Source of the DNA: Reclinomonas americana ATCC 50394
Lineage: Eukaryota
DNA length: 55,699 nt
Assembly: GCA_048213135.1 (NCBI GenBank)
Contig: PS015069.1
Coordinates: 91,198 to 146,896 of the forward strand
Direction: 5' to 3'
The notes beneath the pieces are model-generated. The model was given only the letters and a program-made list of their open reading frames with translations. It had not been told where the DNA came from and ran no database searches. The position numbers and the translations under genes are program-made. The first letter of the stretch is position 1. Every line of letters starts with the position of its first letter. Of the stretch, positions 117-54,251 are shown piece after piece.

Positions 117-3100
117 GTGAATCGACGAGCATCGGTGGCTGAGGCGCGCCGACTGGAGCGTCGATTGCAGCGAGGGCCGCCACGCACCACGATTTCCGTG
201 CCGACGACTCCAATCAAGAGGAGGAGTTTGGCGGCAGCTGGTGCAGACGGGGAGGAAGAAGAAGAAGAGGAGGGTGGCGAGCCGGCGTCTGTGAATGGTT
301 AGCAGGAATCGTCGAATCCTGCCCATCGCTCAGTGCCTCACTCGAAGCCGGCAGATGCTTCGCATGGACAGTCGCCGCAGCAGCTGTTGCCACACGATGA
401 GCATGCTGATGATGATGGAGAAGATGAAGGTGGTGTGGTGCGCGGTGAGCGTGCGGCATCTGCGGCGGCTGGTAATGACGGTGACGACGATGAGGAGCGA
501 GACGATGATCCCGAGCGACATGCGGGCAGTGAGAGTGGGTCGACCGATGGTCGCTTCGAGTATCCCACCACCACGCTGGTGTTCTCGTGGCAGGAAAAGT
601 GTTTTTCACCAGTGTTGCGTGTGCCTCTGCTTTGCTCGCACTTATCTCGCAGCAAGTGGTCTCACCCGTGAACATACAGTCAGGTGCTCAAGTACAAGAC
701 CATGGTCGGCGCGCACTCGACGCTGGATCGACGATTCATAGAGTCGGTGCAACAGTGCGTGGCAGAGTCACCCGACCCTCATTCCACAACGCACTCCCCC
801 ATTCACTCGTATGCACGCCGCGCAGTGCGTCGATCGAGGACTACGCAGAAAACCTGGTGATCTACACCACGGTGGAGGACGAGGGCTTTATCGACGACGA
901 CGAGATTCACATGCGGGTCTGCTCTCCTGACACACGCCGAACAACAACGTGGGATTGCGCTTCTCATCTCTCACACACACGCCACAGGTGCACACTGGTC
1001 TCGGCGACACGCCCCGCCCACTCGCCAAGGCACAATTTGAGCGCCGTCGGCGGCAGCGACTGGCAAACGCCGGTGGCGATCAGCACCAAGAGGCCGCGTT
1101 GCGTTTTTTTCTCCCCTCCCGCACCTCTTTGTGGCGGTGACTGATCTGAGTGCCTACAGCGGAGGGCGCGCTGATGGTGACGGCGAGGGCGGTGGTGGTG
1201 TGATTGATGTTGACGACGAGAGCAACTCGTCGTACATGTATGTGCGTGTGGCGGTCGGCACACTGCGGTTGCGTATTGCACGAAAAACACACACTCTCTC
1301 TCGGTCATTTCCGTCGTCTCATCGCGACCGTGGCACAGTGACACCAACTCGACGCACCCGTGGTGGGACGGCTCAGAGCACACGCTGTGCTTGCTGCAGA
1401 GTTCGGGTGACGGATCGCTGGTCTCACGAGTTGCGCGCTCCGCGAGTGCCATCTCCGTGCCATTTCACTCACCCTCCCTGGCAGCCTGGTCTGTCCAACT
1501 TTGAGCTCCTCATGGTGGACCAGGACGCTGTCGGTGCCGGCGTGCGCAGCAGCGCGGCACCACCACCACCACGTTCAATGAGTGCCGTGTCGGGTGCTGA
1601 TGCGCCGACCGTGCCGGGAGTGCGCTCGTACCACTTTGTGACACCCAACGGCGATGAGTACGAGTACACGGTGGAGCTGGTGGCCACGGACGGGCATCAC
1701 GGACGCCTGCAGACGATGCGATTGCATGCGTTTCGCGAGCTGCAGGAACGGTGTGTTTGTGACATGCGCGCACACGCTGAAGTCCTTCTCGCTGCTGACG
1801 CACGCACACGCACACAGCATGTTCAACAAGAGTCGCAATCTCGCGCCCGACGGCTTCACACCACCACCCGCCCTCGGCCAAGTGCGTGTGCATTTCTCAG
1901 GGGAGCTCGTGTGTGCCCGTGATTTCGACGCGGGCGAGAGTCTGTTGCGTGCGCAGCCGTGTGTGTCTTGCTTGTGATGTTGCCTGTCCCTGTCTCTCGC
2001 TCGCCTGGTGCGCGCGCTGATTTCTGTGTGTGTGTGTGTGTGTGTGTGTGTGTGTGTGTGTGTGTGTGTGTGTGTGTGTGTGTGTGTGTGTGTGTGTGTG
2101 ATGTTGCCTGTGTCCCTATGTCTCGCTCGCCTGGTGCGCGCGCTGATATCTGTGTGTGTCACAGATTCGTGCGCATGCACCTGGAGGTTCCCGCACACTG
2201 GCACGCGGCGAAACGCTCTTCACCGCCCACGTGCACCACACAGTGCGTGCGATGCAACGACAGCGACGTTTTCCACTTTTGCTTCCCGTTCGAGTACGGC
2301 TTTGTTGTGCCCATCAGTGCGTCTCCTCACTCCCTCCCCCCACTCCATCCCTCCGTGAGTTACCAACTCTATATGTAGGCTCCACGGACACACCGCACTT
2401 GGTGTTTGAGTGCTTCTCGGTGGATTCGTGGGATCGACAGCGTGCGGTCGGGTACGCGCAGGCCGAGCTCCCCGCCACCCCCGGTCGGTACGTGCTGGAG
2501 GTGGCCACGTGGCGGCCGGTGGGGTCGGTGCGCGACCGCGTGCGCGATTTTTTCCTCGGCTCCACCCTCCGCCTCAGCGACCCTGCATACGCTTATCGGC
2601 AGGAAAAGTATGCAGACGTGAGTATTGAGATGGTGGTGATGGTGGTGGTGGCGTGTCATCATGCTTGATTTCTCACGACACATCGCGGGGGCGGGGCAGT
2701 ACAATCCGGACGATCGGTTTGGCTTCGTCACGGAGCAGTCGGGTGAGTTGCAGCTGCGCCTGTCCACAGTGGTGCATCGGCAGCCGGAGAGGAGGCCGAC
2801 GGTGCAGGGTGGGTTGCTGGCGATGATTGCTGAGAGGGCGAGGTGAGGGGATGATGGGGGAAGGGGAAAGGGGAAAGGGGAAGAGAGTTAGCATTGTCTT
2901 ATGTTAGTTCTGTGTGTCGCGTCTTTGCTGTTGTCGGTGATTTGTCGTTTCTTCCTTGTTCGTCGCCTCCGTCGCCGTGCACCTGGTTTTGCGTTGCATT
3001 CGACGACTCGTGATCTTTCGACTCGTCTGTGTACCTCTGTGCAGCTGAGTCTTGCTGGTGATATTCTGAACATTTTCATCGCCTCTGTGCACTTTGCTGC

Positions 3101-51708: not shown

Positions 51709-54251
51709 CTATATGGTGGTGAGTTTGTCGACCAGCGCACGGTACCGCACTGGGTCCTCGACGCGCAGGTACCGCAGCATCTTGCGTCGCGAGTCCACGG
51801 CGCGCAGCAGTCCCCGTCGTGAGTGGACGTCCTTGGTCGCGCGGGAGCAGTGCTCGGAGAGTTGCTTGATGCGGAGGGTCCAGCGGGCGACTGAGTGGAG
51901 AGGGGGAAGGGGATAAAGGGAAAGGGTGAGAGGGGGGAAGGGGAAGGGGGAAAAGAAAAGGATAAGAGAGTCTGTGAGAGTGAAGGCAGGGAGAGACAGA
52001 GAGGGAGAGAGAAGGACAGAATGCATGAGGACGCCTGCAGGCTGCTCACGATGCTAAACAACGGGGGGATTGTGCAGCGAGGGAAAGCGAAGGACTCGTG
52101 AATGTCACACAGCGGCAGGAGTGCAAGAGCAACAAGCACGGAGAGAGAGAGAGAATGGAGAAGAACAGAATGAACGAGAAAGTGCAATGCAGGCAGGGAG
52201 AGTGAAGGAGAGAAGGACTGAATGAGAAGTGCAGCTCATCCGCGATGCCTATTGCTCATGCAGCAGCAGGAGTGTAAAAGCAATAAGCGCGGAGAGAGAG
52301 AGAGAGAGAGAGAGACGGCAGCAAGTGGCCACAAAGATGAAAACGAGGGCGAGGAGGGAGAGAAAAAGAGTGAGAAAGAGAGAGAAAGAGGCAGTGAATG
52401 ACAGAAAAGATGAAACAACAGAGAAGAAAGTGATGGACAACGATGAAATGTCAAGGCAGGAAGAGTGAGGGAGAGTAGGACTGGACGAGACGTGTAGCTC
52501 GTCTGCAATGCCTATAGCTCATGCAGCAAAAGCAACAAGCGCGGAGAGAGAGCGAGAGAGAATGGAGAAGAACAGAATGAACGAGGATGAAATGTCAAGG
52601 CAGGAAGAGTGAGGGAGAGAAGGACTGAATGAGAAGTGCAGCTCGTCTGCAATGCCTATAGCTCATGCAACGCACGAGTGTAAAAGCAATAAGCGCAGAG
52701 AGAAAGAGAGGGACAGTGAACGAGAATGTGCAACGAAGGCAGCAAGAGTGAAGGAGAGCAGCACTTGACGAGACGTGTAGCTCGTCTGCGATGCCTGCAG
52801 CTCATGCAGCAGCAGGAGTGCAAAAGAGCAACACGCGCGGAGAGAGAGAGAAAGAGAGAAAGAGAGAGAAGAAAGTAATGAACAACGATGAGATGAAAAG
52901 GCAGGGTGCGTGTAAGAGAGAAGGACTGTATCAGAAGTGCAGCTCGTTGCGATGCCGTGCTGATACAGCGCAAGTGAAAAGCTCTTCTGTGACAAAGTCT
53001 CTCTTCCCTCCCTTCCCCTCCCTCTGCCCCCTCGCCACACTCAACTCTGCACCTCCGGACTCCCACAATCATTCGGCGCACGCGCAAACCGCTGCACCAC
53101 CTCCCTCATCGCCGCCGCATTGCGCTCCGCCCGCCCCGCCGCCTCCAGCGACAACACCGCCCTCACACTCCCATCAATCGCCGCCAATGCCGATGACTCA
53201 TGTGAGAGAGCGGTTGAGACAACGCGCTCTGCGGCTGCCTCGCTGAGGTTGTAACGCGCGCGAGCCTCGGTGGCCAACGCCGACGAGGAGGTCGACATGA
53301 CGCGCCATGCCGCACCTCGTCCTCCGCGCGCGCCACTTGATGTGAGCGGTGGGGAGGAGAGGCACGCCAGTACTGTGTGTGTGTGCACATGAGAGAGTGA
53401 GTGGCAGAGGCAATGAGAGTGTGTGTGCGTGACTTGTGCAATGCATTGTGTTGTGTGATTGAGATGCGTATGTGCGTGCGTGTGAGTGCAGAGTAGGCGA
53501 CAGTGAAGGAGAGTGCGCGCACGTATGTGTGCGACAGAGAGAAGTGTGACACGCACACTGTGCGTGTCGACCAAAGTGCCTCTTCTTTTCTCTCGTCGCA
53601 CACTCGCGCACGCTCTGTGCTAGCCTCACACACAAGTGCACACACATACACACGTGCAGAGAGTGTGCGTGTGAGAAAGAAGTATGACACAGAGTGTCGA
53701 CCAAAGTGCCACTCATCTTCTCTTTCTTTCTCTCTTCTCACACACTCGCGCACGTTGCGTTCTCTCTGTGCTAGCCTCACACACAAGTGCACACACACGC
53801 ATGGGGAGAGTGTGTGCGTGTGAGAGAGAGAAGTGCGACTCACTGTGCGACAAATGCCTTTCATCTTCTTCTCTCCTCGCACACTCGCGCACGCTGCTCT
53901 CTCTCTCTCACACACACACACACAACCTTACACACGTATATGCGCGCACACATGCGTGCAGAGAGTGGCAGCAAGAGGAACCAGCGACCAAAGTGCCTTG
54001 CATTTCTTTTTTCTCTCTCTTCTCTTTTCTCTTTCTCCTTCGCGCTCTCGTCTCTCAACACCACACACATACAGGCGCGTGCACACAGGCGCAGAGAGAG
54101 TGCGCGGCAAGAGAAACAAGTCACAGGTGGTGTCGACCAAAGTGCCTTTTTTTCTCTCTTTCTTTCTCTCACGCTCACTCGCGTCTCTTCTCCCTCTCTG
54201 CACACACACGCATCGCACACACGCGAGAGACGAACCTCGTCGCAACAACAT
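51709..54251 (-). CDS. MRPS15: Mitochondrial ribosomal protein uS15m; exons 54251-54236, 53372-53046 and 51890-51709
   Basis: Arg/Ser-rich leader MLLRRVLACLSS...; S15 motif NDCGSPEVQIARWTLRIKQLSEH...KDVHSRRGLLRAVDSRRKMLRYLRVEDPVRYRALVDKL. Confidence 0.88.
52100..52970. repeat. Degenerate tandem repeat in uS15m intron 2
   Basis: About 5 copies of gtgcagctcgtctgcRatgcctatagctcatgcagca, near 52229, 52492, 52636, 52775 and 52936. Confidence 0.85.
53520..54150. repeat. Degenerate tandem repeat in uS15m intron 1
   Basis: (tgt)cgaccaaagtgcc near 53566, 53695, 53985 and 54131, with shared flanking sequence. Confidence 0.85.

Follow-up and report, generated by a model that had tools for sequence, protein, structure and literature searches.

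Complementary AC and GT repeats bridge introns in teleost fish (Lin et al. 2016, Genome Res, PMC4691745), and the same paper reports that in structured human introns GGG within the first 40 nucleotides (nt) and CCC within the last 40 nt co-occur four times above chance, with a very small gain in stability (-113.85 versus -111.47). In vitro, introns that were enlarged artificially splice better when 20-nt inverted repeats lie near their ends (Martinez-Contreras et al. 2006, PMC1326234). Zipper stems have been described in long introns of Saccharomyces cerevisiae, such as that of RPS17B (Rogic 2008, PMC2536676), and in yeast a distance of at least 10 nt separates the donor from the beginning of such a stem, with at least 20 nt left between its end and the branch point (Rangan et al. 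2025, PMC12350175). Symmetrical (stw)introns (spliceosomal twin introns) of the Hypoxylaceae carry terminal inverted repeats of 45-55 nt (Fekete et al. 2021, PMC8469720). In this study, we analyzed the long introns in a stretch of 55,699 nt (the window) from contig PS015069.1 of the eukaryote Reclinomonas americana ATCC 50394, in which a G-rich purine tract just past the donor is combined with a C-rich pyrimidine tract before the acceptor. All results rest on this one 55.7-kb window.

The positional architecture of these tracts, their enrichment over the short introns of the window, and a predicted end-to-end helix in the long intron of the CBM48 gene are the main results. We tentatively propose that the end tracts pair and bridge oversized introns, a reading to which we assign a probability of roughly 0.36. 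A limited literature search found no paper on G-rich/C-rich end pairing of long introns in intron-definition organisms. Bridging itself is already in print, and what is new is at most a purine/pyrimidine tract variant in a short-intron protist, tied to the growth of tandem arrays.

Tracts at the ends of long introns

An earlier analysis made from the letters of the window alone (the sequence-only reading) had put typical introns at about 50-90 nt and had claimed that all five complete introns over 600 nt begin with a G/A or GT/GA tract and end with a C/T or CA/CT tract. The following features are needed to follow the argument.

8623-17426 and 17882-26700: inverted duplication, about 8.8 kb per arm, the arms 92.8% identical
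17949-19001, + strand: long intron of the CBM48 gene, copy b, 1053 nt, supported by the spliced reading and by copy comparison
17953-17997 and 18928-18999: 5' G-rich purine tract and 3' C-rich pyrimidine tract of copy b
17959-18011 and 18915-18967: inverted repeat of copy b, 53 nt, 74% complementary
16288-17359, - strand: long intron of the CBM48 gene, copy a, 1072 nt, located in the opposite duplication arm
17323-17355 and 16290-16372, each as reverse complement: 5' purine tract and 3' pyrimidine tract of copy a
51891-53045, - strand: uS15m intron A, 1155 nt, supported by Pfam continuity across the junction
52998-53033 and 51897-51970, each as reverse complement: 5' G-rich tract and 3' C-rich tract of uS15m intron A
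13009-13671, + strand: long intron of an unnamed gene (X13009), 663 nt, supported by two-copy comparison
21598-22313, - strand: second copy of the X13009 intron, 716 nt, with GT at 22313 and AG at 21598
2843-3876, + strand: putative MKS1 intron, 1034 nt, intron status doubtful
53373-54235, - strand: putative uS15m intron B, 863 nt, weakly supported
54976-55699, + strand: HOP1 intron, at least 724 nt, incomplete at the window end, placed by a break in the HORMA domain
42546-42848, - strand: intron of a kinase gene, 303 nt, whose splicing restores IHR/DLKPKNVLI

The tracts and the GT...AG ends that had been claimed are present at these coordinates and on these strands, although MKS1 and uS15m intron B are unverified as introns. 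The CBM48 intron had also been said to show its tracts in a second copy, and 16288-17359 is indeed a duplicate of the same intron; since both lie within the inverted duplication, they count as a single intron.

As an intron, uS15m intron A is judged secure on its predicted junction, which reads ...GSPEVQ/I/ARWTLRI..., the exons matching Pfam Ribosomal_S15 positions 3-21 and then 24-79 with a split codon between them. The CBM48 intron is likewise well supported by its predicted product. Its spliced reading is ...GEYLIK/FLVDGEW..., a junction that we take to resemble the AMPK-beta motif, and the two copies of the intron are 89% identical with 73 gap columns, the upstream 67-nt exon being 97% identical and gap-free. 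The tracts differ between the copies by slippage-type indels. The downstream exon matches positions 51-80 of Pfam AMPK1_CBM with an E-value of only 0.07, a homologue search with the CBM48 exon returned nothing, and neither did a PDB search with either CBM48 exon. Both arms of the duplication break off within the CBM48 gene, 67 nt upstream of the long intron.

The X13009 intron, present in the second arm at 21598-22313, is secure because the two copies, 663 and 716 nt long, both stay in frame only if the intron is spliced out. The alignment of the copies has 87 gap columns inside the intron and the flanking exons are free of indels. A 5' purine tract occupies 13015-13034; pyrimidines dominate the interior and the 3' end, which repeat with a period near 140 nt. 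The second copy has 9 nt more in its 5' tract and an insertion of 24 nt in its 3' tract. Also secure are the HOP1 intron, at whose donor the HORMA match (positions 1-33 of 209) stops and is followed by a repeat array, and the kinase intron; these two serve as counter-examples below.

The long introns were compared with short introns from a dynamic-programming gene finder of our own, whose calls are not RNA-validated. Its first versions over-predicted introns and merged genes, and its self-training drifted towards more introns, so only the 50 introns identical in two runs were kept, to which 10 hand-read introns were added. Antisense predictions at 9988-10114 and 10897-10986 (- strand) and all second-arm copies were dropped before counting, introns of 258 and 331 nt fall outside both length classes, and the claimed long introns were among those first used to train the splice-site matrices. 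The resulting 38 short introns measure 52-189 nt with a median of about 68 nt, in agreement with the typical size that had been claimed.

The purine fraction at positions +7 to +46 (or over half the intron where this is shorter) averages 0.44 in the short introns (standard deviation 0.20), which thus start pyrimidine-rich more often. In the five claimed long introns it is 0.93, 0.83, 0.88, 0.90, and 0.58 (Mann-Whitney p = 0.0009 against the 38 short introns). A fraction of at least 80% is found in all three verified complete long introns and in 1 of the 38 short ones (Fisher p = 3.8e-4); with HOP1 counted in, the comparison is 3/4 against 1/38 (p = 1.4e-3). The expectation that 5' purine tracts are enriched in long over short introns is therefore borne out, within the window only.

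The position of the tracts is equally distinctive at the 5' end. The first 50-nt bin is the G-richest in MKS1, X13009, both CBM48 copies, and uS15m intron A (0.50-0.60, against at most 0.40 in later bins), and the G-rich purine tract starts 4-9 nt past the donor, which it abuts at +5 to +9 in each of the four G-rich cases. C content peaks in the last bin of MKS1 (0.50), CBM48 (0.70), and uS15m intron A (0.60); in X13009 that bin is not distinctive (0.56, against an interior maximum of 0.54). On the sense strand, pyrimidines also prevail in the interiors of the MKS1, X13009, uS15m intron A, HOP1, and kinase introns, so that only its C content sets the 3' tract apart and the true anomaly is the 5' purine tract. 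The 3' ends of the long introns contain 0.42-0.70 C, compared with 0.29 C and 0.30 T in short introns, and hence fit the complement of a G-rich tract better than a U-rich tract of the U2AF type. The architecture is real and unlikely to be due to chance, and the numbers are tiny.

Counted without overlap, at least three GGG in the first 40 nt together with at least three CCC in the last 40 nt occur in CBM48 copy a (3 and 4), CBM48 copy b (5 and 4), and uS15m intron A (5 and 4), and in none of the 38 short introns; lower counts are found in MKS1 (5 and 2), X13009 (2 and 2), uS15m intron B (0 and 0), and HOP1 (0 and 1). The three introns with high counts resemble the human GGG...CCC introns in having G triplets past the donor, C triplets before the acceptor, and a proposed pairing between them. 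The human pattern is a statistical tendency, whereas the tracts here are 35-80 nt long and confined to rare long introns of a short-intron genome (PMC4691745). Canonical G-quadruplex motifs are present in MKS1, CBM48 copy b, and uS15m intron A.

A close likeness is to the (AC)m-(GT)n introns of fish, the bridging precedent that the sequence-only reading had invoked. In both cases one of two complementary simple repeats is found no more than about 50 nt past the donor and the other just before the acceptor, with a predicted bridging helix; the fish repeats are slippage-prone and poorly conserved between orthologues, in introns that tend to exceed the average length in short-intron species (PMC4691745). 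The fish class is further marked by native introns clearly more stable than dinucleotide-shuffled versions, the repeats pairing with each other, by a genome-wide excess of co-occurrence, and by repeats that correct splice-site pairing needs in vivo, with U2AF2 dispensable. Here, complementary simple repeats within about 50 nt of both splice sites are found in both CBM48 copies, uS15m intron A, X13009, and MKS1 as GA-rich and CT-rich tracts, and in uS15m intron B as GT/GA...CT/CA. None of these introns uses the original AC/GT hexamers: unlike the fish class, the repeats are G-rich GA and C-rich CT, only uS15m intron B has GT and CA, in reversed order (GT at the 5' end), and predicted bridging is robust in one intron only.

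Predicted pairing of the intron ends

The sequence-only reading had proposed that pairing of the ends loops out the intron body, and its prediction was that cognate ends pair better than random ones. In a first comparison, the duplex energy of the first 70 nt with the last 100 nt of each intron was set against 5090 random window pairs of the same DNA (mean -41.7 kcal/mol, standard deviation 11.9). The long-intron ends give -49 to -90 kcal/mol, with -80 and -90 for the CBM48 copies, and the sole outliers are CBM48 and uS15m intron A, for which fractions of 0.001 and 0.0055 of the null are as low or lower. Gapless inverted repeats of at least 18 nt join the two ends only in these same introns; they measure 21-22 nt in uS15m intron A, and the CBM48 repeat reaches into non-repetitive sequence. 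When the 5' end was scanned against sliding partners, no interior window was better than the 3' end in CBM48 copy b (0/59) and one was in the other copy (1/61); the corresponding counts are 2/66 for uS15m intron A, where the 3' end is near-best, and 0/58 for MKS1.

Whole introns were then folded, and the pairs expected in the ensemble between the first 60 and the last 80 nt were summed.

CBM48 copy b: 43.6 expected end pairs, folded alone
CBM48 copy a: 33.0
MKS1: 36.2
uS15m intron A: 30.3
uS15m intron B: 27.5
X13009: 8.5

The second copy of X13009 gives about 22.8 pairs (in a fold of 21598-22304, without its first 9 nt). Random windows of 700 nt (n = 57), a length below that of most of the introns, give 5.8 pairs on average and 23.7 at most, so that folded alone four of the five introns (27.5-43.6 pairs) lie above all of them. 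With 100-nt exon flanks, CBM48 copy b keeps 43.8 end pairs, the only intron of the five to do so. When G-quadruplexes are allowed, CBM48 copy b and uS15m intron A keep their end helix. The z-scores of the minimum free energy (MFE) against 10 dinucleotide shuffles are -3.0 for CBM48 copy b, -3.5 for uS15m intron A, -4.9 for uS15m intron B, -1.25 for X13009, and +0.4 for MKS1, and short or mid-length introns are unstructured (mean -0.30, n = 40). For CBM48 the case for bridging is convincing at the level of modelling, the predicted helix being stable under every condition tried, and in uS15m intron A bridging is plausible on the same kind of prediction.

A considerable number of results weigh against bridging as the general explanation. 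Raw duplex energy is a poor discriminator, as any 70-nt and 100-nt pieces give about -42 kcal/mol, and the end duplexes of MKS1, X13009, and uS15m intron B are ordinary for this GC-rich DNA (fractions of 0.25, 0.24, and 0.18 of the null). Cognate ends average -55.2 kcal/mol, compared with -50.6 for non-cognate long-intron ends; end complementarity is generic and largely compositional. With exon flanks, the expected end pairs fall to 0.0 in MKS1, X13009, and uS15m intron A and to 1.0 in uS15m intron B, the 5' tract pairing instead with nearer interior pyrimidine tracts, and forcing the end helix costs +14 (MKS1), +13 (X13009), +27 (uS15m intron A), and +1 kcal/mol (uS15m intron B). Interior windows beat the 3' end in 21/33 cases for X13009 and 18/47 for uS15m intron B, and the inverted-repeat arms reported in these two introns pair an end with the interior. 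No gapless inverted repeat of at least 18 nt was found in MKS1, whose MFE structure becomes a quadruplex with no end pairs once quadruplexes are allowed.

The secure counter-examples point the same way. The HOP1 intron has no 5' purine tract (purine fraction 0.38 at +7 to +46), an exception that the sequence-only reading had itself recorded, and the kinase intron is pyrimidine-rich from its first bases (5' purine fraction 0.20). Tracts are also common, with 116 purine or pyrimidine tracts within 55.7 kb, and the independent sample is only 3-5 long introns. Both copies of the CBM48 and X13009 introns keep their two tracts, and because the tract differences are slippage indels of 6-24 nt, the two-copy comparison gives no covariation signal either way.

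The geometry of the predicted helices raises a further difficulty. They start at +1 to +11, and their 3' arms reach -1 to -51 of the acceptor, covering or following CTCAC- or CTGAC-like candidate branch motifs, so the pyrimidine tract, and probably the branch point as well, would be hidden within the helix. Yeast zipper stems resemble the present case in the existence of short and long intron classes, in shortening the effective distance between splice signals, and in their unconserved sequence (PMC2536676; PMC12350175). They run from donor to branch point, unlike the helices here, whose 3' arm lies over or after the likely branch point (judged by motif) up to the acceptor. The 5' arm here starts from +5, closer to the donor than the limit of at least 10 nt in the yeast modelling (PMC12350175). 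In this respect the geometry matches the fish class, in which the 3' arm replaces the pyrimidine tract, rather than the yeast stems (PMC4691745).

Two of the claimed introns are doubtful both as introns and as bridged structures. In MKS1, an in-frame TGA at 2844-2846 (frame ...AGG TGA) overlaps the proposed GT donor; the G-rich tract at 2832-2887 is a G-quadruplex motif and the C-rich tract at about 3840-3856 is short. In a tblastn search with MKS1 representatives of at least 380 residues, 18 high-scoring segment pairs (HSPs) with E < 1 begin in 2700-2899, the longest ending at about 2831, and no gene-strand HSP with E < 0.13 lies beyond 2850. A homologue search with the MKS1 exon returned nothing. 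The segment 2843-3876 may be a 3' untranslated region or a spacer before the next gene (ATG at 4144). If it is unspliced, the protein ends at the TGA; if it is an intron, its retention would yield a near-normal protein. Intron B of uS15m is weak as an intron because exon 1 would consist only of MLLRR (five codons) plus one base. Its 5' end is GT/GA-rich and its 3' end CT/CA-rich. A G-rich tract is lacking (the first 40 nt contain 0 GGG), and the GT/GA and CT/CA motifs recur in every tandem unit of about 150 nt; among its 27 inverted repeats, none of the five longest shown joins the two ends. The claim of G/A or GT/GA starts on all five long introns holds as a G-rich tract in four. The prediction of superior cognate pairing has a mixed outcome, CBM48 and uS15m intron A standing out by raw duplex energy, the other three being ordinary and non-cognate ends nearly equal. 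The predicted looping out of the intron by its ends is convincing for CBM48 and plausible for uS15m intron A, and bridging is unsupported in X13009, uS15m intron B, and MKS1.

The main rival to pairing is that the tracts are separate, unpaired splice-site strengtheners or G-quadruplexes, an account that we consider unlikely on balance and yet weighty. G-runs at the donor would act as an enhancer through U1 or an hnRNP F/H-like protein, possibly as an RNA G-quadruplex, and the 3' tract would be an extended pyrimidine tract or an AG-exclusion zone, long introns needing both on account of inefficient recognition. This would suit the adjacency of tract and donor in all four G-rich cases, the quadruplex motifs in MKS1, CBM48 copy b, and uS15m intron A together with the MFE choice in MKS1, and X13009, whose 3' end is no preferred partner. 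Some short introns (9185-9264, 46026-46086, and 40549-40617) are likewise purine-rich at the 5' end without a pyrimidine-rich 3' end, and in the CBM48 intron and intron 1 of eS30 a long pyrimidine tract free of AG comes after a consensus-like CTGAC placed far upstream. The literature documents G-triplet enhancers and protein-mediated looping (PMC1326234; PMC4691745), and in the constructs of Martinez-Contreras et al. a duplex, or G-rich hnRNP A/B and F/H sites, near both ends of an over-long intron raises splicing by looping. Those constructs were artificial and were studied in HeLa extract, their elements lying 26 nt and 88 nt away from the splice sites; they do not represent a natural genomic pattern (PMC1326234). 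Unpaired strengtheners leave the colinear CBM48 inverted repeat, which extends into unique sequence, unexplained; in addition, 36 of the 38 short introns have fewer than three GGG in their first 40 nt, which speaks against a general donor signal, and the 3' tracts are C-rich, not T-rich. No such factor is identified in this organism, no search aimed at one having been made.

Growth of the long introns and their surroundings

Most of the long introns consist of tandem repeats, private to each intron, whose period is about 136-152 nt. Tandem Repeats Finder reports 144 nt for uS15m intron A, whose interior is a pyrimidine-rich array, and 139 nt for HOP1; k-mer autocorrelation peaks at 140 for X13009, 145 for CBM48 copy b, and 148-152 for uS15m intron B. 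For CBM48 copy a the peak is at about 200 with a weaker one at about 148, and MKS1 is without a clear period. The unit size is near that of a nucleosome. No similarity beyond low complexity was detected between the long introns of the window, and there is no evidence in the window of a dispersed element. Since the arrays are private and periodic, intron length here comes from local repeat growth.

Such growth could by itself yield the observed layout as a neutral by-product. Slippage-prone tracts of the GGGA/TCCC type would gather in expansion-tolerant introns, and seeds near the donor (GTGAG-G...) and in the pyrimidine tract would expand into a purine-then-pyrimidine arrangement that is functionless. 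The abundance of tracts in the window, their indels of 6-24 nt between copies, and the private array in every long intron agree with this view, as does the first intron of a peroxidase gene, where a (GA)n run is present in one arm of the duplication and absent from the other. A similar bracket separates the NDOR1 stop from RINT1, and perhaps another spans the interval from MKS1 to the following gene, both intervals being putative introns at most. Against these stand the single donor-adjacent G-rich tract found in 3/4 verified long introns and 1/38 short ones, within otherwise pyrimidine-rich introns, and the tendency of short introns to start pyrimidine-rich. Neutral expansion is therefore less likely, the purine tract being single and adjacent to the donor, even though the abundance and instability of tracts favor it; we regard it as rather improbable. 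The peroxidase intron measures 80 nt with the run at 9185-9264 and 64 nt without it at 26075-26138 in the other arm, a difference that points to quick gain or loss of intronic purine tracts.

The long introns might instead descend from inserted introner-like, foldback, or MITE-like (miniature inverted-repeat transposable element-like) elements that bore terminal inverted repeats, with the complementary ends as relics. The inverted repeats of CBM48 and uS15m intron A join the ends, and by eye the inverted similarity nearly reaches the splice sites (TGGAG.../...CTCCA in CBM48 and TGAGTG.../...CACTCA in uS15m intron A). Introners with terminal inverted repeats and target-site duplications are described in the literature, as are proliferating fungal introns with 45-55-nt terminal inverted repeats (PMC8469720) and introner-like elements, which surpass regular introns in length and have a predicted structure (PMC3609843). 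Like the introns here, (stw)introns and introner-like elements exceed the normal length, and their terminal inverted repeats can form double-stranded RNA; unlike them, they form multi-copy families of high similarity, whereas each intron here is private within the window. Moreover, the window's long introns share nothing beyond low complexity, no flanking target-site duplications were seen by eye, and the repeats are low-complexity, non-cognate ends pairing about as well. An origin from such insertions is thus very improbable.

The inverted duplication that supplies the second copies is centered on a 455-N gap, with 20-N gaps flanking both outer ends, and looks like either two diverged haplotypes scaffolded head to head or a true palindrome. 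The window contains seven N gaps, and its GC content per 2-kb bin ranges from 44 to 62%. Gene calls come from a Pfam search of 300 open frames, which identified MKS1 (B9-C2), an Mpo1-like gene, an Ifi-6-16 gene, an animal-type haem peroxidase, a thiolase, a large ankyrin gene, a WD40 gene, NDOR1 (Flavodoxin_1 and FAD_binding_1), RINT1, and HOP1 (HORMA); eS30, uS15m, the kinase, and the CBM48 gene are manual readings. For NDOR1, the best homologues share 31-47% identity and are spread across the eukaryotes, and the best MKS1 representatives are 45-52% identical. A metagenome scan with the uS15m exon returned 80 loci of 44-59% identity, taken uninspected as bacterial S15 genes, and found no close relative with an orthologous intron for comparison.

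Two further loci carry tracts of a related kind.

33554-33742, + strand: eS30 intron 1, 189 nt, with an exact 9-mer pair and a long 3' pyrimidine tract
47655-47849 and 48564-48729, + strand: G-rich purine tract (195 nt) and pyrimidine tract (166 nt), bracketing about 1 kb that includes an N gap

The 9-mers of eS30 intron 1, GGAGTGGGG at 33631-33639 and CCCCACTCC at 33713-33721, are exactly complementary, as had been noted before, and by our estimate one such inverted pair in a 189-nt intron is about what chance would give among some 40 introns. The MFE z-score of this intron (-1.1) is not unusual. Between it and the intron at 33748-33843 there is an apparent 5-nt micro-exon, CAAGG (33743-33747), which is needed for MGKVHGSL.... 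The purine tract at 47655 begins 9 nt past the NDOR1 stop (TAG at 47644-47646), and the pyrimidine tract, about 0.9 kb farther along, leads to an acceptor-like CAG at 48738, followed by a coding-looking exon without ATG upstream of RINT1. This bracket is either a long intron of the same design or a bracket around an intergenic spacer; its tract pair is among the strongest duplexes in the random-window null.

Three predicted long introns were rejected: 6961-8231 lies in a region without coding signal, 45054-45860 spans the WD40-NDOR1 gene boundary (Flavodoxin_1 match at 45590-45874), and 43193-44196, for which no separate check was made, overlaps a WD40-matching open reading frame at 43732-44178. 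Recurrent donors across the window are GTTGCG, GTGAGT, and GTGCGT, acceptors are mostly CAG, and a branch-like CTGAC, CTCAC, or CTAAC lies 15-40 nt before most of them. The 92-nt NDOR1 intron at 47094-47185 is purine-rich in its first half and pyrimidine-rich in its second, with complementary pieces (GAGCGACGG / CCGGTCGCTC and GGAGAGG / CTCTCC) and an MFE z-score of only -1.4. A perfect (TG)38 microsatellite at 2025-2100 lies inside a predicted 191-nt intron (1974-2164) in the B9-domain region of MKS1.

Proposed bridging and its meaning

Under the pairing proposal, oversized introns of about 10-17 times the 68-nt norm would each have grown from a private tandem array of about 140-150 nt. They would carry two end elements, a G-rich polypurine tract past the donor and a C-rich polypyrimidine tract extending up to the branch-point and acceptor region. 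These two tracts would pair as an RNA-RNA helix, or the 5' tract would pair with the nearest C-rich tract. Such pairing would loop out the repeat array, and the short-intron spliceosome would then meet both splice sites close together. We infer the helix in vivo, the benefit for splicing, and the extension to other long introns. A much more speculative extension, which we hold to be improbable, is that a G-rich/C-rich terminal zipper serves genome-wide as a licence for the growth of arrays of about 145 nt, replacing U2AF-type recognition as in the fish AC/GT introns and having evolved independently of them.

If the pairing is not real, what remains is an oddity of position, within low-complexity DNA of a genome rich in repeats. 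If it is real, it would represent a second, independently evolved case of natural intron bridging by simple repeats after the AC/GT introns of teleosts, and it would occur where normal introns are about 70 nt long and a long one should be at its most costly. In addition, it would tie the evolution of intron length, through private arrays of 140-150 nt, to a structural rescue mechanism.

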